Shown here in pieces: positions 37,829 through 63,464 of a DNA stretch of 64,000 bases. Under the pieces are notes generated by a model, which made no database searches, was not told where the DNA came from, and was given only the letters and a program-made list of their open reading frames with translations. The stretch comes from Candidatus Hadarchaeota archaeon (GTDB taxonomy: Archaea; Hadarchaeota; Hadarchaeia; Hadarchaeales; JAGGTB01), in NCBI GenBank assembly GCA_964384105.1, contig CAYLJV010000001.1, forward strand, positions 348,900-412,899. Direction: 5' to 3'. The position numbers and the translations under genes were made by a program. Within the stretch, counting starts at the first letter, position 1, and each line of letters starts with the position of its first letter.

Positions 37829-38231
37829 CATAAAATCTATATAATACCAAGGCACCTATTATTAAACATATGTCTAAAACCTTGGAAAGTATATTGGGGG
37901 AGTACAAGGATAAAACTAGTGAATCAAAGAAAGTATGGGAAAGGCTCAGAAAGAGTATTGTCGATGGTGTAGGATGTGCGGGTAGATACTATAGACCCTA
38001 TCCCCTTGTTGTAGATAAAGCTGAAGGGTCTCGAATTTGGGATGTTGATGGTAATGAGTACATCGACTTTTACTTTGATTGGGGTCCACTGGTTTTAGGG
38101 CATTCCAACCCGAAGATTGTAAAAGCCCTTAAGGAGCAGGCTGAAAAGGGAACCATGTATGGTCTGCCTTACGAAAAACTAGCAGATTATGTTGAGGAGT
38201 TAAAGAAGCGTTATCCTGCTGATCTTTTTAG
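37829..38231 (+). repeat. 403-bp direct repeat, copy 1 (promoter plus 5' part of aminotransferase 1)
   Basis: No mismatch found on manual reading against 39685-40087 (offset 1856). Confidence 0.9.
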
Positions 38232-39213
38232 ATTGACAAACTCAGGTACTGAAGCAACATTGCATGCAATAAGGACTGCAAGAGGATATACGGGTAAGGA
38301 TAAGATAGTGAAGATGGAGGGGGGTTTCCACGGAATTCATAATGATGTACTCGTAAGCTTTTACCCACCGGTAAGTAAAGTTGGTCCCAGCTGGGCGCCT
38401 TCACCGTATTTGGACTCATCAGGGGTCCCCTCGGATACAAGGAAAAACACTTTGGTGGCTCCTTTTAATGATATAGCTGCTCTTGAGAGTCTTTTCAGGA
38501 AACATGAGGGTGAAATTGCTGCTGTGATAGTGGAGCCGGTAATGTTGTTTCATGGGGTGATTCCGCCAAAGGAAGGCTATCTGAAAAATGTCAGGAAGCT
38601 CACCGAGGAATACAATGTTGTTCTAATTTTTGATGAGGTTAAAACTGGGAGCAAAATTGCTTATGGTGGAGCCTGTAAATATTTTGATGTTGTCCCAGAC
38701 ATGTTAACTTTGGGTAAAGCTATTGGATGTGGCCTGCCAATTGCTGCTTTTGGTGGTAAGGAGGAGATAATGAACGAAGTTAGCCAGCAGGGATCAGGGG
38801 TACATATCGGAACTTACAATGGAAACCCACTTTCTATTAGTGGTGGCCTGGCGGGTCTTAGGAGTCTAACGAGAGATGTGTACAAAAAAATGGACAAGTT
38901 AAGTGAAATGTTAGGAGATGGAATTCAAGATTGTCTGGATGATGAGGGGTTAACTGGTCGTGTTCAACGCGTGTCGAGTATTGGGGCAGTATATTTAGGG
39001 ATAAGTGAAGAGATTAGAAACTTTAGAGAGGCTGCTCGGGTTAATATAGATTTAGGTTGGAGGTACTGGCTTTCCATGGTGAATGAGGGGATATTTTTCT
39101 CGCCGGGTACTGGTGCTGGTGGAAATTGGCATCTTTCGAGTGTACATACTAAGCGGGATATAGAAAAAGTTCTAGAAAAGAACAAAATGATAATTCAGGA
39201 ACTTAGTGATTAG
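37870..39213 (+). CDS. Class III PLP aminotransferase, GSA-aminomutase-like (paralog 1)
   Basis: WDVDGNEYID, NSGTEAT, GGFHG, LIFDEVKTG, GKAIGCGLP and GTYNGNP. Confidence 0.9.
   Translation: MSKTLESILGEYKDKTSESKKVWERLRKSIVDGVGCAGRYYRPYPLVVDKAEGSRIWDVDGNEYIDFYFDWGPLVLGHSNPKIVKALKEQAEKGTMYGLPYEKLADYVEELKKRYPADLFRLTNSGTEATLHAIRTARGYTGKDKIVKMEGGFHGIHNDVLVSFYPPVSKVGPSWAPSPYLDSSGVPSDTRKNTLVAPFNDIAALESLFRKHEGEIAAVIVEPVMLFHGVIPPKEGYLKNVRKLTEEYNVVLIFDEVKTGSKIAYGGACKYFDVVPDMLTLGKAIGCGLPIAAFGGKEEIMNEVSQQGSGVHIGTYNGNPLSISGGLAGLRSLTRDVYKKMDKLSEMLGDGIQDCLDDEGLTGRVQRVSSIGAVYLGISEEIRNFREAARVNIDLGWRYWLSMVNEGIFFSPGTGAGGNWHLSSVHTKRDIEKVLEKNKMIIQELSD
38854..38939 (+). repeat. 86-bp identical block shared with 40710-40795
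   Basis: Manual alignment at offset 1856. Confidence 0.85.
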
Positions 39214-39301
39214 TATTCTATCGCAATTATTACTCAACAGAAATGGGTAGTTAGTGCAGGGACTTAAATATACAAATATACAAAGTTAACAGTGTTATAA
39301 A

Positions 39302-39598
39302 ATGGTGAAGGTTAGGATAATACCAAAAGTGAAAAACTCCCCTAAAGAAACCGTAATCAAAGGTGAATCAGTAAAAGATGTTATATTGAAATTGCATGAA
39401 AAGCATAGCATCCCCAAGAAAATATATAATAAACATTTAAAGAAGATGATAAGTCCGTTTAGGGGTTTAATAGTACTCCTAAATGGGAAAGCAGTTGGAA
39501 ATTTTGCGGACAAAGAGTATGTCCCGCTATCTGGAGTCGACCAATCAGTTAAAGAAGAAGACGAAATTATTATTATTTTTCCTGCTGCTGGAGGATAA
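39302..39598 (+). CDS. MoaD/ThiS/SAMP ubiquitin-like protein
   Basis: beta-grasp size, VLLNG, and C-terminal IFPAAGG. Confidence 0.88.
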   Translation: MVKVRIIPKVKNSPKETVIKGESVKDVILKLHEKHSIPKKIYNKHLKKMISPFRGLIVLLNGKAVGNFADKEYVPLSGVDQSVKEEDEIIIIFPAAGG

Positions 39599-39684
39599 CT
39601 ACGGTAAATTCTATTAATAGAAACTACGAAGTTGGGTTACTGCAGTTATTCAATTTCTAAAATAATTTTTTGGAATTAAGTGAG

Positions 39685-40087
39685 CATAAAATCTATATAA
39701 TACCAAGGCACCTATTATTAAACATATGTCTAAAACCTTGGAAAGTATATTGGGGGAGTACAAGGATAAAACTAGTGAATCAAAGAAAGTATGGGAAAGG
39801 CTCAGAAAGAGTATTGTCGATGGTGTAGGATGTGCGGGTAGATACTATAGACCCTATCCCCTTGTTGTAGATAAAGCTGAAGGGTCTCGAATTTGGGATG
39901 TTGATGGTAATGAGTACATCGACTTTTACTTTGATTGGGGTCCACTGGTTTTAGGGCATTCCAACCCGAAGATTGTAAAAGCCCTTAAGGAGCAGGCTGA
40001 AAAGGGAACCATGTATGGTCTGCCTTACGAAAAACTAGCAGATTATGTTGAGGAGTTAAAGAAGCGTTATCCTGCTGATCTTTTTAG
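39685..40087 (+). repeat. 403-bp direct repeat, copy 2
   Basis: Matches 37829-38231. Confidence 0.9.
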
Positions 40088-41069
40088 GTTAACAAATTCT
40101 GGCACGGAGGCAACAATGCACGCTATAAGAACTGCAAGAGGCTATACTGGTAAAGATAAAATAGTAAAAATGGAGGGGTGCTTCCACGGTTCTCATAATG
40201 ATGTACTCGTAAGTATATTCCCACCATTGGGCAAGGCAGGTCCAAGCTGGGCTCCTTCTCAGCATTTGGCTTCTTCCGGTGTTCCAGCGAATATAAAGGA
40301 AAATACATTAATCGCGCCCTTTAATAATATAGAGTCTTTAGAGAATCTTTTTAAGAAACATCAGGGAGAAATTGCGGCTGTAATAATGGAGCCGGTTCCT
40401 ATGTTTATGGGAGTAGTTCCACCGATGGATGGTTATCTAGAAGCTGTTAGGGAGCTTACTGAGGAACATAATGTTGTTTTGATATTTGACGAGGTCAAGA
40501 CTGGATGTAAAATTGCTTACGGAGGCGCCTGTGAATATTTCGATATAGTTCCTGATATGATAGCTTTAGGTAAAGCTATAGGGTGTGGTTTACCAATTGG
40601 GGCTTTTGGAGGTAAGGAAGAGATAATGAGTGAAATTAGTCATGGAGGTTCTGGGAAACATATGGGAACTTATAATGCAAATCCACTTTCTATTAGCGGC
40701 GGCTTGGCAGGTCTTAGGAGTCTAACGAGAGATGTGTACAAAAAAATGGACAAGTTAAGTGAAATGTTAGGAGATGGAATTCAAGATTGTCTGGAAGACG
40801 AAGGTATAATCGGCCGTGTACAACGTGTATCCAGTATTGGGGCAATATATCTAGGTATAGATGAAGAAGTGACGAACCTTCGAGAGGCAGCTAGCGTTGA
40901 TATGGCTTTAGGTTGGAGGTACTGGCTTTCGATGCTTAATGAAGGAATTCTTTTCTCGACGGGTACTGGTGCTGGCGGGAATTGGCATCTTTCGAGTGTT
41001 CATACGAAGCAGGATATAGAAGAGGTTCTAGAAAAAAACAGGGTGGTATTACAACAGATTAAGGATTGA
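39726..41069 (+). CDS. Class III PLP aminotransferase, GSA-aminomutase-like (paralog 2)
   Basis: Same motifs as paralog 1; central part diverged (GCFHG, PMFMG, GTYNANP). Confidence 0.9.
   Translation: MSKTLESILGEYKDKTSESKKVWERLRKSIVDGVGCAGRYYRPYPLVVDKAEGSRIWDVDGNEYIDFYFDWGPLVLGHSNPKIVKALKEQAEKGTMYGLPYEKLADYVEELKKRYPADLFRLTNSGTEATMHAIRTARGYTGKDKIVKMEGCFHGSHNDVLVSIFPPLGKAGPSWAPSQHLASSGVPANIKENTLIAPFNNIESLENLFKKHQGEIAAVIMEPVPMFMGVVPPMDGYLEAVRELTEEHNVVLIFDEVKTGCKIAYGGACEYFDIVPDMIALGKAIGCGLPIGAFGGKEEIMSEISHGGSGKHMGTYNANPLSISGGLAGLRSLTRDVYKKMDKLSEMLGDGIQDCLEDEGIIGRVQRVSSIGAIYLGIDEEVTNLREAASVDMALGWRYWLSMLNEGILFSTGTGAGGNWHLSSVHTKQDIEEVLEKNRVVLQQIKD
40710..40795 (+). repeat. 86-bp identical block shared with 38854-38939
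   Basis: Manual alignment. Confidence 0.85.
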
Positions 41070-41978: not shown

Positions 41979-42458
41979 ATGCTTTACTTAAGACCAGAAA
42001 AATGTGTTGGATGTAGGTCTTGTGAACTTGCTTGTTCGTTTGAACATTATAAAGAAAATAATCCGGCGAGGGCTTTAATTTATGTTGTAAAAGAGGAGGA
42101 GGGTATAGACTATCCAGTCATATGTCAACATTGTGACGATGCCCCCTGTATAGAGGTCTGCCCTAAAGACGCTATTATTAGGGATCCTGATACAAATGCA
42201 GTAAAAATTCTAAGAGATGAGTGTATCGGATGTAGAGCTTGTATTAATGTTTGTCCTTTTGGCGCTATATTTGTGGATCCCAAAACGGGTGATGTTTTTA
42301 AGTGTGACTTATGTGATGGGAATCCTAAGTGTGCCGAAATTTGTCCCGTTGATGCTATCATATTTGATTCGAGGAAGGATGTTGGACCACGATTGCTCAG
42401 TCGTTCTAAGTCCAGTGATATTGTTAAATATATAAGAAAAGATAGGAGTGAAAAGTGA
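41979..42458 (+). CDS. 4Fe-4S dicluster (DmsB/NrfC-like) subunit preceding AOR 3
   Basis: CVGCRSCELAC, CQHCDDAPCIEVCP, CIGCRACINVCP and CDLCDGNPKCAEICP. ATG at 41979. Confidence 0.9.
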   Translation: MLYLRPEKCVGCRSCELACSFEHYKENNPARALIYVVKEEEGIDYPVICQHCDDAPCIEVCPKDAIIRDPDTNAVKILRDECIGCRACINVCPFGAIFVDPKTGDVFKCDLCDGNPKCAEICPVDAIIFDSRKDVGPRLLSRSKSSDIVKYIRKDRSEK

Positions 42459-44370
42459 AATGTTTGGGTGGAACGATACAAATTTAAGAATAGACTTGGA
42501 TCGCCAGAAAATCGTAAAGGAACCCTTGAGCGAGGAACTTGCAATGAATTTTTTGGGAGGGGCGGGTATAAACGCAAAGATTTTGTACGATGAGACTGGT
42601 CCAGAAGTTGGACCGTTAGATCCAGGGAACAGATTAATTTTTGGAACTGGTCCTCTTTGTGGAACTTTAGCTCCGGGAAGTGCTCGATACGAGGCCACTG
42701 CTAAAGGACCATTAACGTTTGCTTTTAGCGATAGTAACTCGGGTGGTCATTTTGGTCCAGAGATTAAGTACGCAGGTTATGAGCATGTTATATTTCAGGG
42801 TAGGGCAAAAAACCCGGTATACTTATGGATTGATGATGATCATGTTGAGCTAAAAGACGCTAGCCAATTATGGGGTGAGGATGTCTGGGTGACCGATGAA
42901 GTGATAAAAGAAGAAATTGGGGATCCAGATTTGAAAATTGCTGCAATTGGCCCTCCTGGCGAAAATCTTGTTCGCTATGCTGCTGTGATAAATGATAGAG
43001 CTAGGGCTCTAGGTTGGAGTGGTACAGGGGCCGTTATGGGTTCAAAAAATCTCAAAGCTATTGCTGTTAGGGGAACGAAAGGAGTTCAGTTGGCTGATCC
43101 AGAGGAATTTGAAAGAATAAGTAAAAAGTGCCGAGAAATGGTTTTGAATTCTCAATTGATGGAGACTTATGGCTACTATGGAAAACCATATTTGAACTAT
43201 TTGAGAAATGAACTTCAAAAATCTAATCCAACAAAGAACTATAAACTACCTAGAGTTCCTTCTTCCGAATTCCCAAAGGTTGGAAATGAGGCCTTTGATG
43301 AATTAATAATAGGGTGGAAATCTTGCTTTAACTGTCCTCTTCATTGTGGACATATGCTTGAAGCAAAATCGGGTCCTTATTCAGGTTTGAAGGGGGAAGG
43401 ATTTGAATATAACCAGCAGATCGATGGGCAGATGATGGGAATATATGATCTGAATTTTGTTCTCAAGTGGACTGTAGAAACGAATCGATTAGGGTTTGAC
43501 TGTGATGGTCCAGCCTATGCTATTGCATGGGCTATGGAGCTATGGGAGAAGGGTTTGATTTCTGAGAAGGATACGGATGGAATAGAGCTAGTTTGGGGAA
43601 ATAAAGATGCTGCTCTTTCTATGCTAGATAAGATAGCTAAGCGCGAAGGCTTTGGAGATTTACTAGCGGAGGGTATAGAAGTTGCGGCCAAAAAGTTTGG
43701 GAAAAATTCAAGCGATTTTGCTTATCATATAAAGGGTGGTAGGATTGAAATAGATCCTCGGACTGGTTGGGCCACAGCACTATCACATGCTACATCTACT
43801 CGTGGGTCAGACCATCTTAAGGGCATGCCACTTAGCGATGCTTTTGGTGTTTGGAAAGGAATCCCATATGATTTTACTGATGATAGTGATACTGAGTATA
43901 AACATGAGGCAGTGATCTTCTTTGAAAATATGAATGCTGTTGTAGACTCGATAGGTTTGTGTAAAAATCCTACGTGGGTGCAGAGCGAAGAGTGCCCTGG
44001 CTTGAATGAATTTGCGGCTCTTCTTACTGCAGCTACTGGTCACGAGTTTACAGCTGAGAAACTTTTGTCGATTGGAGAGAGAATATATAATGTTGAAAGA
44101 GCGTATAATGCGAGAGAAGGGCTTACTCGAGAAGATGACACCCCTCCAAAAAAATTCTTTGAAGAACCTATAGATACTAAAATAAAAGTATTGGATAGAG
44201 AGACATTTGAAAAATTAAAGGACAAGTATTATGATGCGCGTGGTTGGGATGTTGATACAGGTAGACCTTTGAGAAAAAAATTGGAAGAGCTTGGATTGAC
44301 TTACATAGCAGATGATCTGGAAGACAGAAATGTTGAGGCGCGAAGTCGTGGGAGAAAGGTGGAGGTGTGA
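42448..44370 (+). CDS. aor: Aldehyde:ferredoxin oxidoreductase family protein 3
   Basis: GGHFGPEIKYAGY, GAVMGSKNLKA, CFNCPLHC, GFEYN, DSIGLC and YYDARGWD. Confidence 0.9.
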   Translation: MKSEMFGWNDTNLRIDLDRQKIVKEPLSEELAMNFLGGAGINAKILYDETGPEVGPLDPGNRLIFGTGPLCGTLAPGSARYEATAKGPLTFAFSDSNSGGHFGPEIKYAGYEHVIFQGRAKNPVYLWIDDDHVELKDASQLWGEDVWVTDEVIKEEIGDPDLKIAAIGPPGENLVRYAAVINDRARALGWSGTGAVMGSKNLKAIAVRGTKGVQLADPEEFERISKKCREMVLNSQLMETYGYYGKPYLNYLRNELQKSNPTKNYKLPRVPSSEFPKVGNEAFDELIIGWKSCFNCPLHCGHMLEAKSGPYSGLKGEGFEYNQQIDGQMMGIYDLNFVLKWTVETNRLGFDCDGPAYAIAWAMELWEKGLISEKDTDGIELVWGNKDAALSMLDKIAKREGFGDLLAEGIEVAAKKFGKNSSDFAYHIKGGRIEIDPRTGWATALSHATSTRGSDHLKGMPLSDAFGVWKGIPYDFTDDSDTEYKHEAVIFFENMNAVVDSIGLCKNPTWVQSEECPGLNEFAALLTAATGHEFTAEKLLSIGERIYNVERAYNAREGLTREDDTPPKKFFEEPIDTKIKVLDRETFEKLKDKYYDARGWDVDTGRPLRKKLEELGLTYIADDLEDRNVEARSRGRKVEV

Positions 44371-44483
44371 TTCTTGGCCAATATTATTTTCATAGATTCT
44401 TTCCAAGATTTTAAAACGGAAGATATAAGCTCGGAATACCAACAGCGCATTGCAAAAATTATACAAAATGGAACTGATTACTA

Positions 44484-45467
44484 ATGATAGTTGATATTCA
44501 TAGCCATATTATAACTGAGTCTTACTTGGATGAACTCTCTAGTAGGAAGAATGTTCCGAGAATAGAAAGTAAGGGCGACGGAGTCTATACTATTCATTGT
44601 AGCGATTTTCTTTCTTACGACTTTGATGAAAGAATGTATGATTTAGATAGAAAGTCTGAGGACATGAAAAAAGCGGGGGTTGATATGCAAATAATTAGTA
44701 TAGCAATGCCAGGAGTTAATAATTTAAAACCAAAAAATGCTGTCAATCTTGCACGATCAGTTAACAACGAAATTGCAGATATTGTGGAGAAAAGGCCGGA
44801 TACTTTTGATGGTGTGGCCACTCTTCCATTTATAGATACAGAAGAGGCTCTAAAAGAGTTGGATAGAGCAATAAATGATTTGGATTTGAAAGGTATTTCT
44901 GTTTCATCTAATATAGCTGGTAGAGGCTTAGATGATAAGGCCTTTTGGCCAGTTTATGAAAAAGTTTCTAATTTAAATATACCTATTTTGGTACATCCGA
45001 CTGTTCCTATCATGGGAGATAAGTTGACGAAGTACGGTCTGAATACAGTTGTCGGCTTTGTTTTTGATTCCACAGTAGCTACACTAAATATGGTTTTTGG
45101 TGGAGTCTTTGAACGCTTTCCAGACCTGAAGGTTGTGGTTCCTCACGCTGGTGGAACAATTCCTTATCTCATCAAGAGGATAGATCATCAATATACGATA
45201 AATCCGAATTGTCGAGAGAAAATCTCAAAAAAACCTAGTGAATATCTGAAATCAATTTACGTGGACACGGCTCAATCTACTTGTGATACTTCTATGAACT
45301 GCGTTAGATCGTTGATGGGAATTGACAAGGTTGTTTTTGGAAGTGATTATCCGTTTTGTTCGCTTGAGGATTCTGTGAATTCGATTAAAGAGATTGGCTT
45401 TTCCGACGAAGAGCTGAATGATATATTTGTGAAAACGGCAGAGAATATTTTTGACTTATCAGATTAG
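44484..45467 (+). CDS. Amidohydrolase_2 family, ACMSD/iso-orotate-decarboxylase-like
   Basis: DIHSH, ILVHPT, VPHAGGTIP and FGSDYPF. Confidence 0.85.
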   Translation: MIVDIHSHIITESYLDELSSRKNVPRIESKGDGVYTIHCSDFLSYDFDERMYDLDRKSEDMKKAGVDMQIISIAMPGVNNLKPKNAVNLARSVNNEIADIVEKRPDTFDGVATLPFIDTEEALKELDRAINDLDLKGISVSSNIAGRGLDDKAFWPVYEKVSNLNIPILVHPTVPIMGDKLTKYGLNTVVGFVFDSTVATLNMVFGGVFERFPDLKVVVPHAGGTIPYLIKRIDHQYTINPNCREKISKKPSEYLKSIYVDTAQSTCDTSMNCVRSLMGIDKVVFGSDYPFCSLEDSVNSIKEIGFSDEELNDIFVKTAENIFDLSD

Positions 45468-45560: not shown

Positions 45561-46733
45561 GTGGTGAAAAAAGTGCGTGATGTTGCAATAGTTGGAATAG
45601 GTATGACCGAGTTTGGTCGACTTGATGGTAATCTTACAGATATTGCATGCGATGCAGCGCTTCAAGCAATGCATGATGCAAATGCTGAAGAAAAAGAGTT
45701 TGATGCATTGTACTTTTCAAATATGGCTTCGGGTGCTTTCAATAGCCAAACCGCTGTAGCAAGTTCAATTGCCGATCGTTTAAGTTTACTTCCTGCCGAT
45801 GCGCATCGTATAGAAAATGGTCCCGCTTCTGGGGGTTCGGGAATAAGAAGCGCTTTGATGGGGGTTGCATCTGGATTTCAAGACCTGGTTTTGGTAGTTG
45901 GTGCTGAAAAAATGACTGATGTGAGCGGAGATGTAGCTACAGATATTCTTTCTTCTATGAACCATCCTGAGGCAGAGTATAAACATGGAGTTACGATGCC
46001 TGGCATGGGTGCTTTGTATACAAGGCTTTATATGAAGGAGTATGGGGTTACGGAGGATGAATTTGCTGCTGCTGCCGCAAAGAATCACATTAATGCTACT
46101 AAGAATCCCAAAGCGCAACTTAGACATAAGGAAGCTACTATTGAGGGAGTAAAGGATTCAATAATGGTTGCAGATCCTATTAGATTGTATCATACCTGCC
46201 CAGTGACAGATGGTGCTGCCGCATTAGTTTTATGTCCGTTGGATATGGTTGAAGAGTTTTCGAAGAAACCTGTTAGAATACTTGGCTCTGGACAGGCTAC
46301 AGATACGATGTCTCTAGAGGAACGCGATAATCCGTTGAGGCTTAAGAGTGTAGAAATTGCTTCGGATGAGGCCTTTAAGATGGCAGGTTTGAGTCGTAAG
46401 GATATTGATATAGCTGAGGTGCATGATGCATTTATAACACTAGAATTAGCTGAATTGGAAGCAGCTGGATTCTTCCCTGCAGGGAAGGCAGGTAAAGCTA
46501 CTCTAGAAGGAAAGACAAAATTAGATGGCGAATTTCCAGTAAACACTTCTGGTGGACTAAAAGCCAGAGGTCACCCAGTAGGAGCCACGGGAATTTCCCA
46601 AGCAGTTGAGTTGGTTACTCAGATTAGGGGGGAAGCAGGTGAAAGACAGGTTAAAAAAGCTAAAAATGGTTTCTGTTGCAACTTTGGTGGATTTGGTAAT
46701 AATACTGTAGTACATATTTTAGGAGGGATCTGA
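45561..46733 (+). CDS. Thiolase-superfamily (SCP-x type) protein lacking the nucleophilic Cys
   Basis: VAIVGIGMT, ENGPASGG (canonical ExACASG), AEVHDAF, NTSGGLKARGHPVGATG and CCNFGG. Confidence 0.85.
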   Translation: MVKKVRDVAIVGIGMTEFGRLDGNLTDIACDAALQAMHDANAEEKEFDALYFSNMASGAFNSQTAVASSIADRLSLLPADAHRIENGPASGGSGIRSALMGVASGFQDLVLVVGAEKMTDVSGDVATDILSSMNHPEAEYKHGVTMPGMGALYTRLYMKEYGVTEDEFAAAAAKNHINATKNPKAQLRHKEATIEGVKDSIMVADPIRLYHTCPVTDGAAALVLCPLDMVEEFSKKPVRILGSGQATDTMSLEERDNPLRLKSVEIASDEAFKMAGLSRKDIDIAEVHDAFITLELAELEAAGFFPAGKAGKATLEGKTKLDGEFPVNTSGGLKARGHPVGATGISQAVELVTQIRGEAGERQVKKAKNGFCCNFGGFGNNTVVHILGGI

Positions 46734-46735
46734 AA

Positions 46736-47107
46736 GTGGCGGGAAATGAGATTAAAGGTTACGAATGTAAAAATTGTGGGAGGCTAGGCCATATTGCTGG
46801 AAGAAGGTGCCTGAGCTGTAAAGGAACAGAATTTGAGGAAATTAAACTGGGTGATAAAGCTGTGCTTAGAACATATACGCAGATTTACAATATCCCTGCT
46901 GGCGTGAATGTTGACCCTCCTCTAATGATTGGCTTGTTGGAATTTGATAATGGTGTCAAGGTCGTAGGACAGTTGAACGTTGATGACCCTGAGGACTTGG
47001 GGGTTGGTAAGAAATTCGAACCCGAATGGTCAAAGCTTAGGGAGATTCAAGGTAAGGAAGTTTTTGGTTTTAGGTTCAAGCTCGTTGAAAGCTCAAAGGA
47101 GGGATAG
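46736..47107 (+). CDS. DUF35 Zn-ribbon/OB-fold protein (thiolase partner)
   Basis: CKNCG...CLSC followed by an OB-fold region; directly after the thiolase. Confidence 0.88.
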   Translation: MAGNEIKGYECKNCGRLGHIAGRRCLSCKGTEFEEIKLGDKAVLRTYTQIYNIPAGVNVDPPLMIGLLEFDNGVKVVGQLNVDDPEDLGVGKKFEPEWSKLREIQGKEVFGFRFKLVESSKEG

Positions 47108-47109
47108 AA

Positions 47110-47799
47110 ATGAAAGAAAAAACATATCGTGGAATAGAGAGTAAGAGGAAAGTGAAGGATTTAGGCTTCGAGTATCTGGGCGAAGATATTGATATGCCAG
47201 TTCGTGGAACTGATGCGGACTGGGAAGAAGTTATGAAGCCATATCCAACTAGGAAAATTGTTCTACCCAATGGAAAAGAAATGATAGTCGATAGTATGAG
47301 TAAGGATGAAGTAGAGGAGGTTGCTGAGGCACTGCAACCTAAAACTGTTCAACATAGACAACTGTTTGATTTGATCTCCTCTGAACTGGTCACTGAACTA
47401 TACTTATGGCGAGAAAATAGACCAATGTGGAGTTGTCCACCGGAAAGTCATTTCTGTTTAGTTGGAAGAGTTGATGGAACTATTGTTGGTTGTTCGAACG
47501 GTGTATTAAGCGATCCTAAGGTGGGGAACAGTCTTCATACAGTTGCTATAGAAGAAGGACAGCAAGTAGGCGCTCAATTGTGGGGATGTAAGCTAGAGCA
47601 TTATTTTGATGTTTTGGGAATTGAAGCATTGCACGCTGCTGCCGAGAGTTATAGAGGAAGTACGGAGTTATTCGATAGATTTGGATTTAAAGAACTACCT
47701 AGTAAGATAACACACTTTGGTACTGGCCCTGAGCAGTATTTGACGAAGGCCCAATGGAAGCGAATAAGACCCGGTAAAATAACTGGCAAGAGGATTTAA
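47110..47799 (+). CDS. Probable GNAT-fold acyltransferase
   Basis: CLVGRVDGTIVG strand, EGQQVGAQL (motif A-like) and ELFDRFGF (motif B-like). Confidence 0.6.
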   Translation: MKEKTYRGIESKRKVKDLGFEYLGEDIDMPVRGTDADWEEVMKPYPTRKIVLPNGKEMIVDSMSKDEVEEVAEALQPKTVQHRQLFDLISSELVTELYLWRENRPMWSCPPESHFCLVGRVDGTIVGCSNGVLSDPKVGNSLHTVAIEEGQQVGAQLWGCKLEHYFDVLGIEALHAAAESYRGSTELFDRFGFKELPSKITHFGTGPEQYLTKAQWKRIRPGKITGKRI

Positions 47800-49127: not shown

Positions 49128-49928
49128 GTGATGTCTTTGAGTTCTAAAAATACGAGAGAAGTATTGGTAGATGAATGGGAAAATAAATCTACTTTTGTTG
49201 ATCAATTGAGGGAGAAATACGATCATCTTTTCCAAAAAATTGCTGAACATCCATTTCTCCTAGAAATCGAGGAGGGAAAACTGCCGTTAGAGAAATTTTT
49301 ATTTTATGCTAAGCAAAATGAATATTACATATCTGAACTAAGATCAGCTGCTTCAGCTGGAGCTGCTCGGGCAACGACTGATTCTGAAAGAAGGATAATG
49401 ATGATGATTGTAAGCATGTTTCCACTGGAGTTATCTGAGTATTGTTTTGGAAAACTTTCTGTGGCAGCAGGTGTGCCGGATGAGGAGATTAAAGCCATAC
49501 TTGAAGATCCAGATTTCCCACTTCCAGCCACACGGGCATATACCGATTTTATGTACAAGGAGTTTGCGACCAAACCCGCGGGAGTAGCGACAGCGTCTTT
49601 CATAACTTGCCCCTGGACTTACAGCTCAGTGGATATTGGAGGTCTTTCGTGTGGTAAAACTTTTGCAAAAGCTCTGCATGACCATTATGGAGTCGACAAA
49701 AAGATCACTGAGGAATATATAGAACATTATGAAACAGACGAAGATTTTGCTATTGGTATAAAGGCTTTGAAAGATGCGGTGAATAAAGATGCGGAAGAGG
49801 GAAATGATAAAATGAGGAATATCCTAGAGTCTAATTTTAAAAGGGATGTAGAATACGAGTATATGTTTTGGGAGATGGCATACAAGCATAATCCTGGTAA
49901 GGAAAGGGAATTTGGTTCTTATTTCTAA
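49128..49928 (+). CDS. tenA: TenA-family protein (thiaminase II / aminopyrimidine aminohydrolase-like)
   Basis: HPFL, FLFYAKQNEYY, catalytic-type CPWTY, and EYMFWEMAY. Confidence 0.8.
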   Translation: MMSLSSKNTREVLVDEWENKSTFVDQLREKYDHLFQKIAEHPFLLEIEEGKLPLEKFLFYAKQNEYYISELRSAASAGAARATTDSERRIMMMIVSMFPLELSEYCFGKLSVAAGVPDEEIKAILEDPDFPLPATRAYTDFMYKEFATKPAGVATASFITCPWTYSSVDIGGLSCGKTFAKALHDHYGVDKKITEEYIEHYETDEDFAIGIKALKDAVNKDAEEGNDKMRNILESNFKRDVEYEYMFWEMAYKHNPGKEREFGSYF

Positions 49929-50109: not shown

Positions 50110-51426
50110 ATGGGAAAAACTATTGCTATAGAAAATGGAATTGTTCTTACTATGAACTCAGATAGAGAAATTTTTAAAGAGGGATCTGTGGTTATAGAGG
50201 ATGACAGAATTTTGGAAGTTGGCGATAGTAGTGATGTGAAAAAGAATTATACGCCTGATATTTCTATTGATGCAAAAAATAAAATCGTAATTCCTGGCTT
50301 GATTAGTTTGCATCATCACTCTGATAATATGTCAAGGGGTGTGGGAGAACATATGGGGCTTCATGATTATTTAGAAAAGATATACTACCCAATGCTTTCA
50401 AAAGCAACTCCTGAAGAAACTAAGTTAACTGCACTATTGTCATATACTGAAGCTATTCTTTCGGGTACTACCACAGTAAACGAAATGTATGTTAATCTTG
50501 AAAGTTGTGCGGAGGCTGCCGAAGAGATTGGTATAAGGGCGGTCATGTCTAGTGAAGCTGCTGATTTAATAGAAGGATATGGTGAAAGCTTGGACCTAAA
50601 TGAAAAGGCCTTTAAGGAGTTAGATGGTTCTGCAGACGGAAGGATTAGAATATGGTTTGGGGCAGAGTGGGTGCCTGTTTGTTCCGAAGATTTTCTCATA
50701 AAAACGAGAGAATTAGCTGATAAGTATGAGACTGGGATTCACATACATCTTAATGAGTCGAAAGACGAAGTAGAACTTTGCAAAAAAGAACACGGCAAGG
50801 GCTCAGCTGAATATGTTAATGAATTAGGAGTTTTGGGGGATGATGTTGTATCTGCTCATAGCGTCTGGCTTTCAGAAAAAGAACAGAATATTTTTTCTGA
50901 AAGAGGCGTTAGCGTAGCTCATTGCCCGGTTTCAAATTTGAAATTGGGAAACGGAATAGCACCAATTCCTGAATTGATTGAAAAGGGTGTCAACGTTGGT
51001 CTTGGCCCTGACGGCGCTCCTTGTAACAATACAGTTAATATGTTTGAAACTATGAAATTTGCTTCCTTGGTACAAAAAGGGAGATTTTTAGATGCGTCTC
51101 AGATGCCATCAGAAAAGGTTTTAGAGATGGCTACTATAAACGGGGCAAAAGCTCTTGGACTAGAAGACGAAATTGGATCGTTAGAGAAAGGTAAAAAAGC
51201 CGATATAGTGTTGGTTGATCTCGATGTACCAAATCTACGCCCGATCTATTATGGTAAAAATCTTAATGCGTACTCACATTTGGTATACGCATCTCCAAAT
51301 GCTGTGGATACAGTGCTAATAGATGGGAAATTAATTGTAAGAGATGGTAAGATAGATACAGTTGATGAAGAGAAGCTTCTTAGAGATTTTCAGACTTCTG
51401 CTGATGGACTTATAGATCGAATATAA
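50110..51426 (+). CDS. Amidohydrolase, SAH/MTA deaminase-like (paralog 3)
   Basis: PGLISLHHH, SGTTT, HIHLNE, AHSVW, HCPVSNLKLG and GLGPD. Confidence 0.9.
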   Translation: MGKTIAIENGIVLTMNSDREIFKEGSVVIEDDRILEVGDSSDVKKNYTPDISIDAKNKIVIPGLISLHHHSDNMSRGVGEHMGLHDYLEKIYYPMLSKATPEETKLTALLSYTEAILSGTTTVNEMYVNLESCAEAAEEIGIRAVMSSEAADLIEGYGESLDLNEKAFKELDGSADGRIRIWFGAEWVPVCSEDFLIKTRELADKYETGIHIHLNESKDEVELCKKEHGKGSAEYVNELGVLGDDVVSAHSVWLSEKEQNIFSERGVSVAHCPVSNLKLGNGIAPIPELIEKGVNVGLGPDGAPCNNTVNMFETMKFASLVQKGRFLDASQMPSEKVLEMATINGAKALGLEDEIGSLEKGKKADIVLVDLDVPNLRPIYYGKNLNAYSHLVYASPNAVDTVLIDGKLIVRDGKIDTVDEEKLLRDFQTSADGLIDRI

Positions 51427-51542: not shown

Positions 51543-52583
51543 TTGGAAATTGTGGGAAAGATGTTAGGGCTAACTAATAGACAGTGGGCGACAACTTTCT
51601 CTTTCTTCGGCATTGTTATTGCAATACTAGCTGTAATATTTTTGGTTATAGGGGTTGCAATCGATATAGAAATGCAAAGTATATTCTCTGTTTTTTTTAA
51701 GACTACTTTGTTTTCTAGTAGCGGTCTTCTTAAAGTTCTACAGAGAACAACACCCCTTACAGTAGCGGGTCTGGGGTTAGCGGTAGCGTTTAATTCAAAG
51801 TTTTGGAACATTGGTGGAGAAGGCCAGATTGTGGTAGGGGCTTTAGTTGTTACTGGTATCTGTTTGTTTTTAGGATTACCAGCATTCATTTTGGTGCCAC
51901 TGGCTCTTATTTTGAGTTTTTTAATTGGTGGAGCTTATTCTGGATTTGCAGGAGTTATTAAAGCAAAGTGGAATGTAAATGAAATTCCAGTTACGATTAT
52001 GATGAATTTTTTAGCTTTTGCAATTTTAGGTTATTTAATCAATAACCCTTGGAATTGGGGAGAAGGTTTATACGCTCGGACGGCACTTATTCCTGCTGCA
52101 ACTAGGTTTCCTTTTATAATCAGACCGTTGAGCACGACTTTTCTACTGGCAATAATTTTAGTCTTAGTGATATATGTTTTAGTTAAAAAAACGATATTTG
52201 GTTACAAGATTAGAGTTGTGGGTAGCAACTACAGAGCTGCAATAACCCAGGGTATAAATGCCAATAAGATCATTAGCTTGAGTGCATTTATAAGCGGAGG
52301 TGTTTGTGCCCTCGCAGGAGCTTTTATCGTATTTGGTGGGCTTTTTAGGGCTCAAGATGGCCTTTCGGGCTTTTATGGCTTTTATGCAATAGTTGTCGCT
52401 CTTCTTGCGAACAATAAGCCGCAATATATAATTTTTGCGGCATTCTTTATGGCCTTCATTATACAGGGTGTGATCAGCATTGTAGTTCTTGGAGTTCCTC
52501 GCCAATTGGGGACGTTAGTGGTTGGTATAATGTTCGTCGTTGCAATTTCTTCAAAGTTAATTACTGAGAGGTTGCCATTATGA
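51543..52583 (+). CDS. ABC permease (NupB-like)
   Basis: FWNIGGEGQ, WNVNEIPVTIMMNF and GFYGFYAIVVALLA. Confidence 0.92.
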   Translation: MEIVGKMLGLTNRQWATTFSFFGIVIAILAVIFLVIGVAIDIEMQSIFSVFFKTTLFSSSGLLKVLQRTTPLTVAGLGLAVAFNSKFWNIGGEGQIVVGALVVTGICLFLGLPAFILVPLALILSFLIGGAYSGFAGVIKAKWNVNEIPVTIMMNFLAFAILGYLINNPWNWGEGLYARTALIPAATRFPFIIRPLSTTFLLAIILVLVIYVLVKKTIFGYKIRVVGSNYRAAITQGINANKIISLSAFISGGVCALAGAFIVFGGLFRAQDGLSGFYGFYAIVVALLANNKPQYIIFAAFFMAFIIQGVISIVVLGVPRQLGTLVVGIMFVVAISSKLITERLPL

Positions 52584-53455
52584 TCACTGATATAACTATT
52601 TCGATATTGACCCTTTTACCTATATTAGGTCTATCTTCTCTTGGAGGATTAATTACACACAAAAGTGGCGTTTATAACATAGCGATGGAAGGGATTATGG
52701 TTTTTGGAGCACTGGCTGCTACTTTTACTTATTTCCATATATTTAGTTCACCCTGGATTGCTCTATTTGGTGGGCTTTTGGGTGGAATTTTATTCGGAGC
52801 GATTTTAGCTGTTTTGGAAGTGAGATTGAAATTGAATCAGATAGTCGTTGGATTTGGTCTATGGTTTGTAGCAGAGGGATTGGCTGGAACAATCTATTTT
52901 ACAAGTGTCCCGAGTTTTACTATAGAAAATACATTTAGTTCGACTTTATTTTCTCTTAACCCAATTTTCTATCTTACAATAGGTTTGGCAGTTGTGCTTT
53001 ACATTCTTTTTAAGAGGACGAAACAAGGTCTAGCTATAAGAGTCGTGGGTGAAAATCCAAAAGTTGCCGATTCTACAGGAATAAATGTGTTTAGGGTTAG
53101 ATGGATATGTTGTTTGGTGGGTTCAGCCCTTGTTGGGGCGTCCGGTGCTTATGCGTCTATTCAGTTCTTACAGGGTTTTACATATAGTATGATAGCGGGA
53201 TATGGTTGGATCGCTTTTGCTACTATATTATTTGGGCGTTTTTCCTCAGAGGGGGTGTTTGGTGCTTCTCTGTTCTTTACTGCTTTAATAGCGATACAAA
53301 CTAGATTACAAGTTGCAGGAATGGTTTTCATACCCACTCAGTTTATGGTTGTGATACCTCATTTGGCGGTTATAGCAGCTCTCGCTTTGATGGGTATAAT
53401 GGGAAAAAGCTCTAATATGCCTTCTGGATTAGGTATTCCGTACGAAAGAAAATAG
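52580..53455 (+). CDS. ABC permease (NupC-like)
   Basis: SGVYNIAMEG, GLAIRVVGENPKVADSTGINV and GYGWIAFA. Confidence 0.92.
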   Translation: MITDITISILTLLPILGLSSLGGLITHKSGVYNIAMEGIMVFGALAATFTYFHIFSSPWIALFGGLLGGILFGAILAVLEVRLKLNQIVVGFGLWFVAEGLAGTIYFTSVPSFTIENTFSSTLFSLNPIFYLTIGLAVVLYILFKRTKQGLAIRVVGENPKVADSTGINVFRVRWICCLVGSALVGASGAYASIQFLQGFTYSMIAGYGWIAFATILFGRFSSEGVFGASLFFTALIAIQTRLQVAGMVFIPTQFMVVIPHLAVIAALALMGIMGKSSNMPSGLGIPYERK

Positions 53456-53456
53456 T

Positions 53457-54722
53457 TTGGTGAACAAATTGACTAATCAAATTAGAAAAAAAATTGGTGA
53501 GGCAAATAATGAAGTAGTTGAAAAAATTATGGAGTCCCACCCAGTGCTGGTGGACATAGCTCCAGCAATTGATGCTGTTCCAGGTATGGAAAGTGATATG
53601 CTTCTATATGGAGGCCCACCTAATTGTTGGGAAGACATGATAGATCCTGTAAAAGGAGCGGCAATTGGTGCTTCTATTTATGAAGGATGGACAAGTTCAG
53701 AGGATGAAGCTATTTCCTATATAGAGGATGGAAAGGTAAAATTTTCGCCAACAGCCGATCATTCTGCAGGTGCTCCGATGGCGGGAATTATTTCACCATC
53801 TATGCCTGTATTCGTGATTAAAAACAAGACTTATGGTAATTATACATTTTCAAACGTAAACGAGGGTTTGGGGAAGACTCTTCGTTACGGTGCTTATGAT
53901 AATGAGGTGATTACAACTCTTCGCTGGATAGAGAAAACGCTAATGCCTGTTTTAAAAGAGGTATTGGAGAAACATGGTGAAATAGACGTTAAAAGATTGA
54001 TAATCGGAGCGATACATAGGGGTGATGAATGTCATAATAGGAACAAGACAGCATCCAATCTATTATTGAAGCCACTTGCTTCAGCTCTTTTTAGAACAAG
54101 TGTAGATCGAGAAGAAGCGGCACAGGTGTTAGATTTCATAAATGGAAATCCACATTTCTTTTTAAACCTCTCTATAGCTTCTAGTATAGCTTGCTTAAAT
54201 GCAGCTCACGATGTTAAATACAGCACCATTGTTACCCGACTTTGTACAAATGGTTCTGATTTTGGCTTGAAACTGAGCGGTTTAAATGAAGAGTGGATAA
54301 CTGCTCCTTCCAAGCTAGCTGAGGGTAGCTATTTTGAAGGTTATGACGAAAAAGATGCTGCACCTGTTTTTGGTGACTCTTATAATTCCGAGCCAGCAGG
54401 TTTGGGTGGCTTTGCGATGGCAGCTGCTCCTGCTATTGGTAGCTTTATAGGAATTTCACCTGAAGAATGTATTGATTATACAAAAGAGATGTATAGAATA
54501 ACTGTAACGGAACATAAATACTACAAAATACCACATTTGGGCTATAGAGGTACTCCTCTAGGTATTGATATTCGGAAGGTAGTAAAGACAGGTATATTAC
54601 CAATAATAAATACTGGTATATCCCACAAAGATAGAGGAAAGGGACAAATAGGTGCAGGCATAGTTAGACCGCCTCTGGAACTTTTCAAAAAAGCTTGGAA
54701 GAAATTTGAAAATTTCTATTAA
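53457..54722 (+). CDS. DUF1116 protein (YlbE/AllG/YahG family)
   Basis: GGPP, NEGLGKTLRYGA, GDECHNRN, HFFLNL, GDS...GLGGF and INTGISH...GQIGAG. Confidence 0.85.
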   Translation: MVNKLTNQIRKKIGEANNEVVEKIMESHPVLVDIAPAIDAVPGMESDMLLYGGPPNCWEDMIDPVKGAAIGASIYEGWTSSEDEAISYIEDGKVKFSPTADHSAGAPMAGIISPSMPVFVIKNKTYGNYTFSNVNEGLGKTLRYGAYDNEVITTLRWIEKTLMPVLKEVLEKHGEIDVKRLIIGAIHRGDECHNRNKTASNLLLKPLASALFRTSVDREEAAQVLDFINGNPHFFLNLSIASSIACLNAAHDVKYSTIVTRLCTNGSDFGLKLSGLNEEWITAPSKLAEGSYFEGYDEKDAAPVFGDSYNSEPAGLGGFAMAAAPAIGSFIGISPEECIDYTKEMYRITVTEHKYYKIPHLGYRGTPLGIDIRKVVKTGILPIINTGISHKDRGKGQIGAGIVRPPLELFKKAWKKFENFY

Positions 54723-55510: not shown

Positions 55511-57088
55511 ATGAAGGAGATTAAGGCTACTAATAGGGTTATCCATATTCCGGAGAAATCCTCAAATCATGATGTTGTTTTCAAAGAATTGATTGATATT
55601 GTTGGAGAGGAATATGTTAGAGATGACCTTGGTACTAACTATGTTTATTCCAAAAATATGACGGAGTTTGAGCAGTATCTTCCTGAATATGTTGTTGCCC
55701 CAGGTTCTACTGAGGAGGTCAGCGAGATAATAAAATTAGCGAATGAGCATAAAGTCCCGATTCAGTGTCAAGTGAAGGGGCTAAACATGGGGGATTGTCA
55801 TATGTTGCTCGATGGTGGCTTGTTAATTGATTTAAGGAGAATGAGTTCTGTATTAGACGTTGATGAAGATTCTTCATATGCATTATGCGAGGCTGGAGTA
55901 AGCTTTGCGGATTTGAGAAAAGAGTTGAGAGAAAATCACCCTGATTTTATTGTAAATTATGGTTTTATGCCTGCAAGTTGCGGAATAGTGGCAAATGCTC
56001 TCGTTGAAGGGCATCTACAGTATTCAAATAAATACGGTTGTTCTTACCATAATCTCCTCTCGGCGGAGGTAGTACTTCCAACAGGCGAAATTGTAAAAGT
56101 CGGTGCAAGAGGACTAGTAAATTCTTGGAATCGTAGATCTGCGACTCCGGATTTATTGGGTCTGTTTTCGGGTGGATGGTATGGAACAACTGGAATCGTA
56201 ACGAAAGCTGCTATAAGGATAATTCCAAAGCCGAAATTTAGTGAAACCGTGTTTGTAACTACACCGAATATAAAGTCTGCTTGTGAAATGCCTAGAAGAT
56301 TGGCTGCTTCCCATTTGTGTGATGGTATAGGAAGTGTGGACTGGCGAATGTGTATGCTTGTTGGGGGTAGTAAGAAAGCCGAGGATGTTCCGAATGAGCG
56401 GCCTGAGGGATGGCCTGAAACTTCTATGGATGTGAGTTTTTCTTCATATGTGAGTGAAGAAGAATTCGAACTAAAAAGAAAAAATATTGAATCGATTGCA
56501 GAAGAGTTGGATGGCGAAGTATTACCTCTTGATGGATTTGGGTATGAAACAGAAAGATTCTGTAGCCTTCCGATGGTTGAAGGAGCTCCAGGAGGCGTAG
56601 GCCCATTTTTTGCAGGTGCTGGAAAGGGATCTGGTCTTTCATGGATCGGAGGATTGGGTGAGGATAAATATTATGAAGATTTGTATGAAGGTACACTGGA
56701 AATATTTGATAAATATCCTGATATTTTCCCACAAATTTGCATGTACGAAATGAGTCATGGTCACGTTGGTTGTTTTAGAGAAATAGTCTCTTTTGATAGA
56801 GCTGACCCAGATCAAGTAAACCAGGTTAGAAATGCACACAAAGAAGTCGTTAAAATGATGTATGATCATGGATACACCCTTTACAAAGCTCCGAAGTTTG
56901 CTACTGATATTTTGATGAAGGATTATGCTGACAGTGAATTCTTAAATTTAATGAAAAAAGTGAGAAAGACGCTAGATCCGAGTGGAATTATGGCGCCGAA
57001 GAGATGGAACCTTTCCGATGATGATGACGTTTATAAGTATTATGGTGGAAGTGAACCAGACTTAGATACAAAGGAAGGTGGTGAGTGA
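55511..57088 (+). CDS. FAD-binding oxidoreductase (VAO/PCMH/GlcD superfamily)
   Basis: PGSTEEVSEIIKLAN, LIDLRRM, EAGVSF, EVVLPTGEIV, GTTGIVTK and LDPSGIMAP. Confidence 0.88.
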   Translation: MKEIKATNRVIHIPEKSSNHDVVFKELIDIVGEEYVRDDLGTNYVYSKNMTEFEQYLPEYVVAPGSTEEVSEIIKLANEHKVPIQCQVKGLNMGDCHMLLDGGLLIDLRRMSSVLDVDEDSSYALCEAGVSFADLRKELRENHPDFIVNYGFMPASCGIVANALVEGHLQYSNKYGCSYHNLLSAEVVLPTGEIVKVGARGLVNSWNRRSATPDLLGLFSGGWYGTTGIVTKAAIRIIPKPKFSETVFVTTPNIKSACEMPRRLAASHLCDGIGSVDWRMCMLVGGSKKAEDVPNERPEGWPETSMDVSFSSYVSEEEFELKRKNIESIAEELDGEVLPLDGFGYETERFCSLPMVEGAPGGVGPFFAGAGKGSGLSWIGGLGEDKYYEDLYEGTLEIFDKYPDIFPQICMYEMSHGHVGCFREIVSFDRADPDQVNQVRNAHKEVVKMMYDHGYTLYKAPKFATDILMKDYADSEFLNLMKKVRKTLDPSGIMAPKRWNLSDDDDVYKYYGGSEPDLDTKEGGE

Positions 57089-58371: not shown

Positions 58372-58420
58372 GATTCCTTGGAAACATAGTTTTGTATTTT
58401 TTACATTTTTTTGTTACGCG

Positions 58421-58439
58421 AAATGTTTATATATGACTG
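58421..58439 (+). promoter_or_regulatory. BRE/TATA promoter, class B (etf operon)
   Basis: Identical 19-mer to 50054-50072, 31 nt before the etfB start measured from the motif end. Confidence 0.7.
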
Positions 58440-58469
58440 GGTTAGAAGACTAGAATGTTGGTGTAATTT

Positions 58470-59270: not shown

Positions 59271-59271
59271 A

Positions 59272-60237: not shown

Positions 60238-60335
60238 TGAATACTGGTGGCGGTCCTCTTTATTGCTCTTTAATCATAATCCCCAATTTCTTCAACGTAA
60301 AGTTTATATATGGGTGAGGCGGAGTTAACCATAAC

Positions 60336-61475: not shown

Positions 61476-61485
61476 GGAGATAAAA

Positions 61486-63462: not shown

Positions 63463-63464
63463 TT

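Follow-up and report, generated by a model that had tools for sequence, protein, structure and literature searches.

A polyferredoxin, a tungsten-type aldehyde:ferredoxin oxidoreductase (AOR) and a protein of the Amidohydro_2 family are encoded in succession in a 64,000-nucleotide stretch of DNA (hereafter the window) from the Hadarchaeota genome G000 (1.62 Mb, 90% complete; contig C1:348900-412899). We give roughly even chances to the reading that these genes form a functional cassette, in which a two-subunit tungsten AOR and a non-oxidative decarboxylase of the ACMSD family would degrade an imported N-heterocycle or nucleoside-derived compound under anoxic conditions, the AOR acting first. 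Gene content across loci suggests that the cassette forms the constant core of a wider, horizontally moving set that would also comprise importers, deaminases, a subtype of AllG, and thiolase-like, DUF35 and GNAT genes. The Amidohydro_2 protein of the window is referred to below as AH2 and the oxidoreductase, labelled 'AOR 3' in a first-pass annotation of the same DNA, as AOR3; genomes and loci carry G and L numbers, respectively. A TFIIB gene in the window confirms an archaeal host, which is an uncultured archaeon of hot-spring type that shares its order, but not its family, with Candidatus Hadarchaeum.

A two-subunit AOR followed by an Amidohydro_2 gene

The ferredoxin, AOR and Amidohydro_2 open reading frames lie on the same strand where the first-pass annotation had placed them (Table 1), and the gap that it reported between the AOR stop and the AH2 start codon, an ATG, is exactly 113 bp. 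Its numbering of the oxidoreductase is also right, the other AORs of the window lying at 23001-24743 (-) and 29404-31338 (+). The ferredoxin and AOR genes are closely coupled, but the overlap that it described exists only if the AOR begins at GTG 42448. The likelier start is ATG 42460, the point from which the alignments with orthologues and with the PDB homologues 9MQX_D and 9G7J begin; a GGAG-type site precedes this codon, and the junction most likely reads stop, one nucleotide, start.

The ferredoxin contains 16 cysteines arranged as four CxxC...CP motifs, and in the PDB it most closely matches Fe-S subunits from W-aldehyde oxidoreductases (9MQX_E, 8e-35; 8C0Z_C, 3e-34). AOR3 matches 9MQX_D (8e-121), the Pyrococcus furiosus AOR 1AOR (about 3e-116; 2.6e-116) and AorB, and it contains the [4Fe-4S] motif CxxCxxxC (Cys289/292/296) along with Cys501. 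By homology, the pair is a two-subunit AOR of the WorSL/AorAB type, for which tungsten and aldehyde oxidation are predicted.

AOR3 and AH2 co-occur across genomes

The distribution of both genes was determined in 66 Hadarchaeota genomes, together with a Chloroflexota metagenome-assembled genome (MAG; Limnocylindrales, G066) and a peat contig (L116), which is the informative locus among the metagenome matches listed, the others listed being mostly distant relatives. The AOR3 clade was found in seven of the 66 genomes (G000 and, at 67-71% identity, G024, G027, G032, G036, G037, and G062) and, beyond Hadarchaeota, in G066 (66%) and L116 (69%). Identities within the clade range from 65 to 71% and the next-best AORs reach at most 53% identity to AOR3, which delimits a sharply bounded clade; the tree recovers it as nine rows, including G066 and L116, with an SH-aLRT support of 97. 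Outside the window, AH2 orthologues (43-51% identity) are encoded in G024, G027, G032, G036, G062, and G064, so that among Hadarchaeota seven genomes contain AOR3, seven contain AH2 and six contain both. A contig end falls within the AOR gene of G037.

The first-pass annotation had proposed that the Amidohydro_2 gene is functionally tied to this AOR clade, and had named as counting against the proposal that the gene should be transcribed independently and never co-occur with the clade; an AH2 orthologue sits in the same cluster at 8 of the 8 AOR3-clade loci for which flanking DNA is available. Co-distribution and conserved adjacency above chance support the proposed link. Ferredoxin orthologues (48-60% identity) lie directly 5' of every AOR3-clade gene, and at five Hadarchaeota loci (L001-L004, L196) only 3-8 bp separate the AOR stop from the AH2 start, spacing that makes co-transcription of the two genes near-certain in these orthologues.

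Linkage persists outside Hadarchaeota in rearranged surroundings. On the peat contig, the ferredoxin and AOR3 genes are divergent from a run consisting of AH2, RidA, a phosphoesterase-like gene, TenA, a deaminase, two further TenA genes, a deacetylase, and M20. In the Limnocylindrales MAG (L214 and L005; C26, about 29-50 kb), the order runs from an XdhC-like gene through a deaminase, the ferredoxin, AOR3, a second AOR, an aminotransferase, and a Zn-alcohol dehydrogenase to a cyclase; DUF35, thiolase-like, GNAT-like, and AllG genes come after these on the opposite strand, and AH2 comes last. The whole set spans ~20 kb, with AH2 located 9.6 kb from AOR3 in the same cluster. Phylogenetic analysis of AH2 recovers a clade of 39 rows (SH-aLRT 98) divided into three subclades, each of which includes a locus linked to AOR3 or to its ferredoxin. 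The flanks vary from locus to locus: a thiolase set is found downstream of the cassette in the window but on its upstream side in G032, and in Hadarchaeum the genes after AH2 are ABC genes. Since ferredoxin, AOR3 and AH2 stay together despite these reshuffled flanks, inheritance as a frozen block does not explain the link between AOR3 and AH2.

Distant AH2 homologues (<35% identity; Dehalococcoidia, Smithella, and others) have no AOR within 8 kb, except at one locus. There, in an Actinomycetota MAG (Candidatus Solincola; L035:6136-9591), a distant homologue (29% identity) is encoded ~760 bp upstream of a distant AOR (34%). This is a second pairing, apparently independent, of an AOR with an ACMSD-type protein.

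AH2 falls in the decarboxylase branch of its family

Sequence ranking, a clade profile and model superposition all place AH2 in the decarboxylase branch of its family and not in the hydratase/hydrolase branch, in agreement with the first-pass annotation, against whose reading a hydratase or hydrolase would have counted. Searches with the single sequence returned 49 PDB matches at E <1e-3, led by human ACMSD (3.7e-43; 151 bits) and LigW (9e-37; 130 bits). Bacterial ACMSD, gamma-resorcylate decarboxylase, and iso-orotate decarboxylase (IDCase; 8e-27, 97 bits) rank below these, and LigJ hydratase (6e-17) and LigY far lower. A profile of 13 close relatives reproduces this ranking: all solved decarboxylases score 105-196 bits, compared with 86 for LigJ hydratase and 75 for LigY hydrolase.

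The AlphaFold2 (AF2) model of AH2 (pLDDT 94.6) is a (beta/alpha)8 barrel with a three-stranded insertion (residues 26-31, 34-40, and 43-47) between beta1 and alpha1, a domain characteristic of the decarboxylase branch, and it superposes on human ACMSD (4OFC) with a TM-score of 0.91 and on IDCase with 0.89-0.92. The metal ligands H6, H8, H171, and D288 are present, with H6, H171, and D288 invariant in the 13 close relatives. H221 and R232, both invariant in the clade, align with the catalytic His224/228 and the trans-subunit Arg235/239 of ACMSD. Its sequence and modelled fold make non-oxidative decarboxylation, of the ACMSD type, the most likely activity of AH2.

Proposed order of steps and competing explanations

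ACMSD-family decarboxylases take carboxyl groups off sp2 carbons beside an oxo, hydroxy, or amino group. In the route that we propose, an alcohol or aminomethyl side chain would first be converted to an aldehyde, which the AOR would oxidise to a carboxylate while passing two electrons out via the polyferredoxin; AH2 would then release the carboxyl as CO2 from a carbon of the kind just described. The deaminases, the TenA-like gene and the BMP-type importers nearby fit a nitrogen-heterocycle or nucleoside-type substrate, and gene content makes an imported, amino-substituted nitrogen heterocycle or nucleoside-derived compound the most likely class. An AOR-first order, as the first-pass annotation had proposed, is slightly favoured over a decarboxylase-first order, and the alcohol dehydrogenases, aminotransferases, deaminases and TenA-like gene are consistent with it; the present data do not separate the two.

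A narrower version of the AOR-first route, which we consider rather improbable, is the O2-independent removal of a one-carbon side chain from a pyrimidine or related heterocycle, an anaerobic counterpart of the thymine-7-hydroxylase/IDCase route whose genes would travel as a set between archaea and bacteria. Thiamine, through its hydroxymethyl- or aminomethyl-pyrimidine moiety, and 5-hydroxymethyl-uracil or -cytosine would be candidate substrates. An alcohol dehydrogenase, the TenA-like enzyme or an aminotransferase would produce the aldehyde, the AOR the acid, and AH2 the bare ring, with the adenosine/SsnA-type deaminase acting last. The idea is attractive because M20, TenA, alcohol dehydrogenase or aminotransferase, AOR, decarboxylase, and deaminase would make up an unbroken chain. 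Against it stand the failure to find TenA of the window type in cassette-bearing Hadarchaeum genomes, the fact that IDCase is not the nearest relative of AH2, and the lack of riboswitch matches. In Rfam searches, the only match in the window was a tRNA; the 113-bp spacer matched no family, and neither the window nor five related loci gave a TPP or any other riboswitch.

Several observations weigh against an AOR-first cassette of AOR3 and AH2. In G064 (L006:1792-4615, C27), AH2 and AllG come immediately after the orthologous ferredoxin, across a 40-bp gap that holds no AOR, and the closest AOR of that genome (53% identity) is encoded on another contig with its own ferredoxin downstream; an adjacent AOR is thus not strictly needed by AH2. 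Gene order is in any case uninformative on reaction order. In the window protein and several metagenomic relatives, the first metal motif of AH2 reads H-S-H, and the Hadarchaeum orthologues have H-A-E (position 8 is Glu), a replacement of H-x-H by H-x-E within one orthologous group that may reflect a different metal preference. ACMSD Arg47/51, which binds the substrate carboxylate, is replaced by Tyr45 in the HMMER alignment, a residue invariant in the clade, and the substrate of AH2 is therefore not ACMS; an Arg is present at position 50, three residues later than the aligned site. We know of no characterised orthologue. The supporting genomes belong mainly to one archaeal order and are kin, amounting to about four or five independent contexts. 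Finally, AH2 may have its own promoter in the 113-bp spacer and be transcribed separately in the window. TATA-like stretches were read by eye ~26 and 70 nt upstream of its ATG, a T-rich run follows the gene, and a second AT-rich spacer precedes the thiolase-like gene. A scan for bacterial promoters and terminators gave chance-level counts, from bacterial models that are not applicable to archaea.

Of the competing explanations, the one that survives best reverses the two enzymes, and we regard it as unlikely but a real contender. Hydrolytic opening of an N-ring would yield an unstable amino- or oxo-carboxy semialdehyde, which AH2 would decarboxylate before the AOR oxidised the aldehyde, with a RidA-type protein removing the enamine nitrogen. 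ACMSD is the closest solved relative of AH2 by both sequence and fold, and its substrate already bears an aldehyde. In the nba and amn pathways, the genes for ACMSD, 2-aminomuconate-semialdehyde dehydrogenase, and a RidA-family deaminase form clusters, and the three enzymes catalyse consecutive steps. A RidA gene comes directly after AH2 in L116, and L002 has one close to the cassette; the L005 and L006 clusters contain cyclase genes, and G000 has both RidA and a cyclase beyond the window; an unstable intermediate would also account for the tight gene coupling. However, ACMSD Arg47 is not conserved in AH2, and the RidA and cyclase genes of G000 do not adjoin the cassette. The known ACMS route, moreover, depends on a dioxygenase, an enzyme that these anaerobes are unlikely to have, and no ring-opening enzyme is tied to the cassette.

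An improbable alternative makes AH2 a hydratase, lactonase, or C-C hydrolase (LigJ/LigI/LigY-like) feeding a thiolase-like/DUF35 retro-aldolase, with the AOR oxidising the released aldehyde. The Amidohydro_2 family does include hydratases and hydrolases, and the nucleophilic Cys is missing in all four thiolase-like orthologues, as in the Ltp2-DUF35 aldolase class. The thiolase set also lies beside the cassette in the window and in G032, and beside another ferredoxin-AOR pair in G028. Set against this are the clade profile, which scores the decarboxylases (105-196 bits) above LigJ and LigY (75-86 bits), and the Hadarchaeum loci, which keep AOR3 with AH2 while the thiolase set is on another contig.

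It is very improbable that the pair runs in a reductive, biosynthetic direction, in which AH2 would carboxylate a phenol-like or heterocyclic ring, the AOR would reduce the acid to an aldehyde with low-potential ferredoxin, and an aminotransferase or alcohol dehydrogenase would follow, as might happen when a vitamin precursor is salvaged. In vitro, several decarboxylases of the ACMSD family also work in reverse, acids can be reduced by AORs, and aminotransferase, TenA-like, and alcohol dehydrogenase genes are nearby. Such a direction would be thermodynamically uphill, though, the importers, deaminases, and deacylases give the context a catabolic look, and a kinase or ligase for salvage was not seen in the cluster. 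Adjacency of unrelated neighbours inherited together is hardly credible, since the link recurs in three AH2 subclades, a bacterium, and a divergent peat contig despite reshuffled flanks and the co-distribution is near-exact, even though the loci come mostly from one archaeal order and the spacer in the window permits separate promoters.

Genes around the cassette

Features of the cassette and its surroundings are listed in Table 1.

Table 1 Features of the cassette and neighbouring genes in the window
Feature	Position	Strand	Basis or remark
Two class-III (HemL-like) aminotransferase paralogues flanking the MoaD-like gene	37870-41069	+	PF00202, NCBIfam
MoaD/ThiS-like small protein, possible AOR cofactor-maturation factor	39302-39598	+	Weak ThiS/MoaD matches
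Polyferredoxin, Fe-S subunit of WorS/AorA type, four [4Fe-4S] motifs	41979-42458	+	159 aa, Pfam Fer4 matches
Tungsten-type aldehyde:ferredoxin oxidoreductase, catalytic subunit of WorL type (AOR3)	42460-44370	+	AFOR_N E 1e-74, AFOR_C E 5e-102
AT-rich spacer, 113 bp	44371-44483	+	3-8 bp in orthologues
ACMSD-family (Amidohydro_2) metal-dependent enzyme (AH2), most likely a non-oxidative decarboxylase	44484-45467	+	PF04909 E 3.7e-37
Thiolase-like protein without nucleophilic Cys (ENGPASGG)	45561-46733	+	Thiolase Pfam domains
DUF35/OB-fold partner of thiolase-like protein	46736-47107	+	PF01796
GNAT-fold protein, 229 aa, no Pfam match	47110-47799	+	AF2 model
TenA/thiaminase-II-like protein	49128-49928	+	PF03070; TIGR04306 78 bits, cut-off 130
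Amidohydro_1 deaminase (5'-deoxyadenosine deaminase/TRZ-ATZ/SsnA type)	50110-51426	+	Domain searches
Two permeases of a BMP-type ABC importer	51543-53455	+	PF02653
AllG-family (DUF1116) protein, low-scoring subtype	53457-54722	+	PF06545

Downstream of AH2, the window encodes thiolase-like, DUF35, and GNAT-fold proteins. Alignment of the thiolase-like protein with the archaeal thiolases 7YVY and 6ESQ reveals Pro in place of the nucleophilic Cys, and the loss is conserved in the orthologues of G032, G028, and the bacterial G066. A housekeeping mevalonate thiolase was ruled out for this gene, as the nucleophile is missing and there is no HMG-CoA synthase. The DUF35 gene adjoins the thiolase-like gene in L196, L198, and L005 as well. 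The model of the GNAT-fold protein (pLDDT 72) retrieves only GNAT acyltransferases as top PDB matches (E ~1e-7), and its Atlas neighbours are partly Acetyltransf_1 proteins. All three genes occur together in the window (45561-47799), L196:11409-13566, L198:886-3029, and L005:3855-6056, that is, in Hadarchaeota and the Chloroflexota MAG; in G028 they lie directly 5' of a different ferredoxin-AOR pair. The Hadarchaeum loci keep AOR3 and AH2 without the thiolase set nearby.

The GNAT-fold gene is present in 29 of the 66 Hadarchaeota genomes and the AllG family likewise in 29, with 25 genomes shared and the two genes usually a few kb apart. AllG proteins of Hadarchaeota separate into two score groups, and the lower subtype (~245-277 bits) is found in exactly the eight genomes that contain AOR3 and/or AH2. 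AllG directly follows AH2 in G032 (C2:99614-100255) and G064 (C27:8879-9520) and is divergent from it in G066. Oxamate carbamoyltransferase is formed by AllF, AllG, and AllH together (PMC11326118). This role was rejected for the AllG protein of the window, since AllH (PF11392) had no match in the 90%-complete G000, where AllG occurs once and AllF was not searched for.

Upstream of the ferredoxin, the HemL-like aminotransferases are possible aldehyde-forming enzymes. They are absent from the Hadarchaeum loci and G066 has a different class-III enzyme, so they are not conserved partners. ThiS-family genes are located ~1.1 kb 5' of the ferredoxin in the Hadarchaeum loci L002 and L003. Compared with 1UDD, the TenA-like protein retains the catalytic Cys (TCPWTY) and the Glu of FWEMA, and has QN for the pyrimidine-binding QD of thiaminase II. 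TenA homologues number three paralogues in L116 and are weak in G066 and G032. TenA was rejected as an obligate partner of the cassette because the window type was not found in the Hadarchaeum genomes searched that keep the AOR3-AH2 pair. Deaminase homologues are encoded beside or near the cassette in L002, L116, G032, and G066, and BMP-type ABC genes follow AH2 in L002, L003, L199, and G032; M20 deacylase, alcohol dehydrogenase, RidA, and formamidase-like genes are further frequent additions across loci.

Around the cassette, the window contains three AORs, three 5'-deoxyadenosine-deaminase/SsnA-type amidohydrolases, and three BMP-type ABC importers, as well as an M20 deacylase (PRK08596, 534 bits), Fe- and Zn-alcohol dehydrogenases, and a flavodoxin. 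Just outside it are a fourth AOR, a further BMP/ABC set, an arginase-family gene, RidA, and a kynurenine-formamidase-like 'cyclase', the last two at C1:421.7-423.0 kb of G000. An island of ~70 kb (window 13060-54722 and G000:C1:415842-422982) thus comprises four AORs, four BMP-type importer sets, the three paralogous deaminase-type amidohydrolases, the M20 deacylase, a 518-aa amidohydrolase, and the arginase-family, cyclase, and RidA genes. From its gene content, the island resembles a set of paralogous tools with which nitrogen-rich small molecules could be taken up and broken down. Next to this catabolic island, a further group of genes (window 55511-63884 and G000:C1:412780-415715) encodes a FAD-binding/CCG oxidoreductase pair, EtfAB, and HdrA-like and MvhD-like (FlpD) proteins, and genes for NiFe-hydrogenase subunits come after them. 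The products may form a flavin-based electron-bifurcating assembly, which could restore oxidised ferredoxin after its reduction by the AORs.

Searches of six other genomes of the genus of G000 recovered no AH2, AOR3-clade gene, AllG family member, or GNAT-fold gene, and in the AOR tree the AOR3 of the window groups with the bacterial G066 and peat sequences and not with other Hadarchaeota. Together, this absence from congeners and this grouping suggest that the set was acquired horizontally. The presence of nearly the whole set in the Limnocylindrales MAG points to transfer between domains.

Implications of the gene pairing

Most AOR paralogues of anaerobes lack an assigned physiological substrate, and G000 alone encodes at least four AORs. 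A decarboxylase fixed to one AOR clade provides a handle on this problem, as the substrate of AH2 would name the aldehyde of the AOR and reveal an anoxic catabolic pathway. The pathway, for nitrogenous compounds, appears common to Hadarchaeota, Chloroflexota, and peat organisms, and it would extend the ACMSD family, which acts mainly in aerobic aromatic and tryptophan catabolism, to strictly anaerobic archaea, in which its partner would be a tungsten enzyme. While AORs and ACMSD-type enzymes are each well known, a literature search of incomplete coverage, which does not prove novelty, found no paper on a conserved pairing of an AOR with an ACMSD-type protein or on the gene set.

Comparison with known systems

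The AOR portion of the cassette resembles WorSL of the Acetomicrobium mobile WorABCSL complex (9MQX; PMC12318220) and AorAB of Aromatoleum aromaticum (8C0Z), in both of which a gene for a four-cluster ferredoxin of ~160 aa lies directly 5' of the AOR. The catalytic subunit keeps the [4Fe-4S] Cys motif of 1AOR, WorL, and AorB, which are its top sequence matches, and a MoaD-like gene is close by, as in the aor operon. Unlike WorABCSL and AorAB, the window pair has neither the bifurcating WorABC core nor the FAD subunit AorC encoded beside it, and it is paired with an ACMSD-type decarboxylase, a pairing not found described for those systems in the literature searched.

AH2 shares with ACMSD (human 4OFC/2WM1; P. 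fluorescens 2HBV) the barrel, the insertion domain, the H-x-H/His/Asp ligands, the catalytic His, and the cross-dimer Arg (R232), at ~29% identity across the Foldseek alignment. It differs from ACMSD in having Tyr45 for Arg47/51, in its anaerobic host, and in its partner, a tungsten AOR instead of an NAD-dependent semialdehyde dehydrogenase. IDCase (4HK5/4LAM), the basis of the analogy with thymidine salvage drawn in the first-pass annotation, has the family and fold in common with AH2, and it acts after a C5 side chain has been oxidised via the aldehyde to the acid, as proposed here; its sequence is more distant from AH2 than those of ACMSD or LigW, and the fungal oxidation is carried out by an O2-dependent dioxygenase. 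LigW 5-carboxyvanillate, gamma-resorcylate, and 2,3-dihydroxybenzoate decarboxylases are the second-best solved group for AH2. Enzymes of this group act on aryl acids whose carboxyl is ortho to a hydroxyl, and they belong to aerobic pathways for lignin and phenols; no aromatic-ring genes were seen around the cassette. Some of them have a Glu at the first metal motif, as do the Hadarchaeum orthologues with their H-x-E.

With a thiolase fold and a DUF35 partner, the thiolase-like protein next to the cassette resembles the archaeal thiolase/HMGCS/DUF35 complex as well as the steroid side-chain aldolase Ltp2-ChsH2(DUF35), and it shares with Ltp2 the lack of a nucleophilic Cys. In contrast to the archaeal complex, HMG-CoA synthase is absent here, and genes for GNAT-fold and AllG-family proteins travel along instead.

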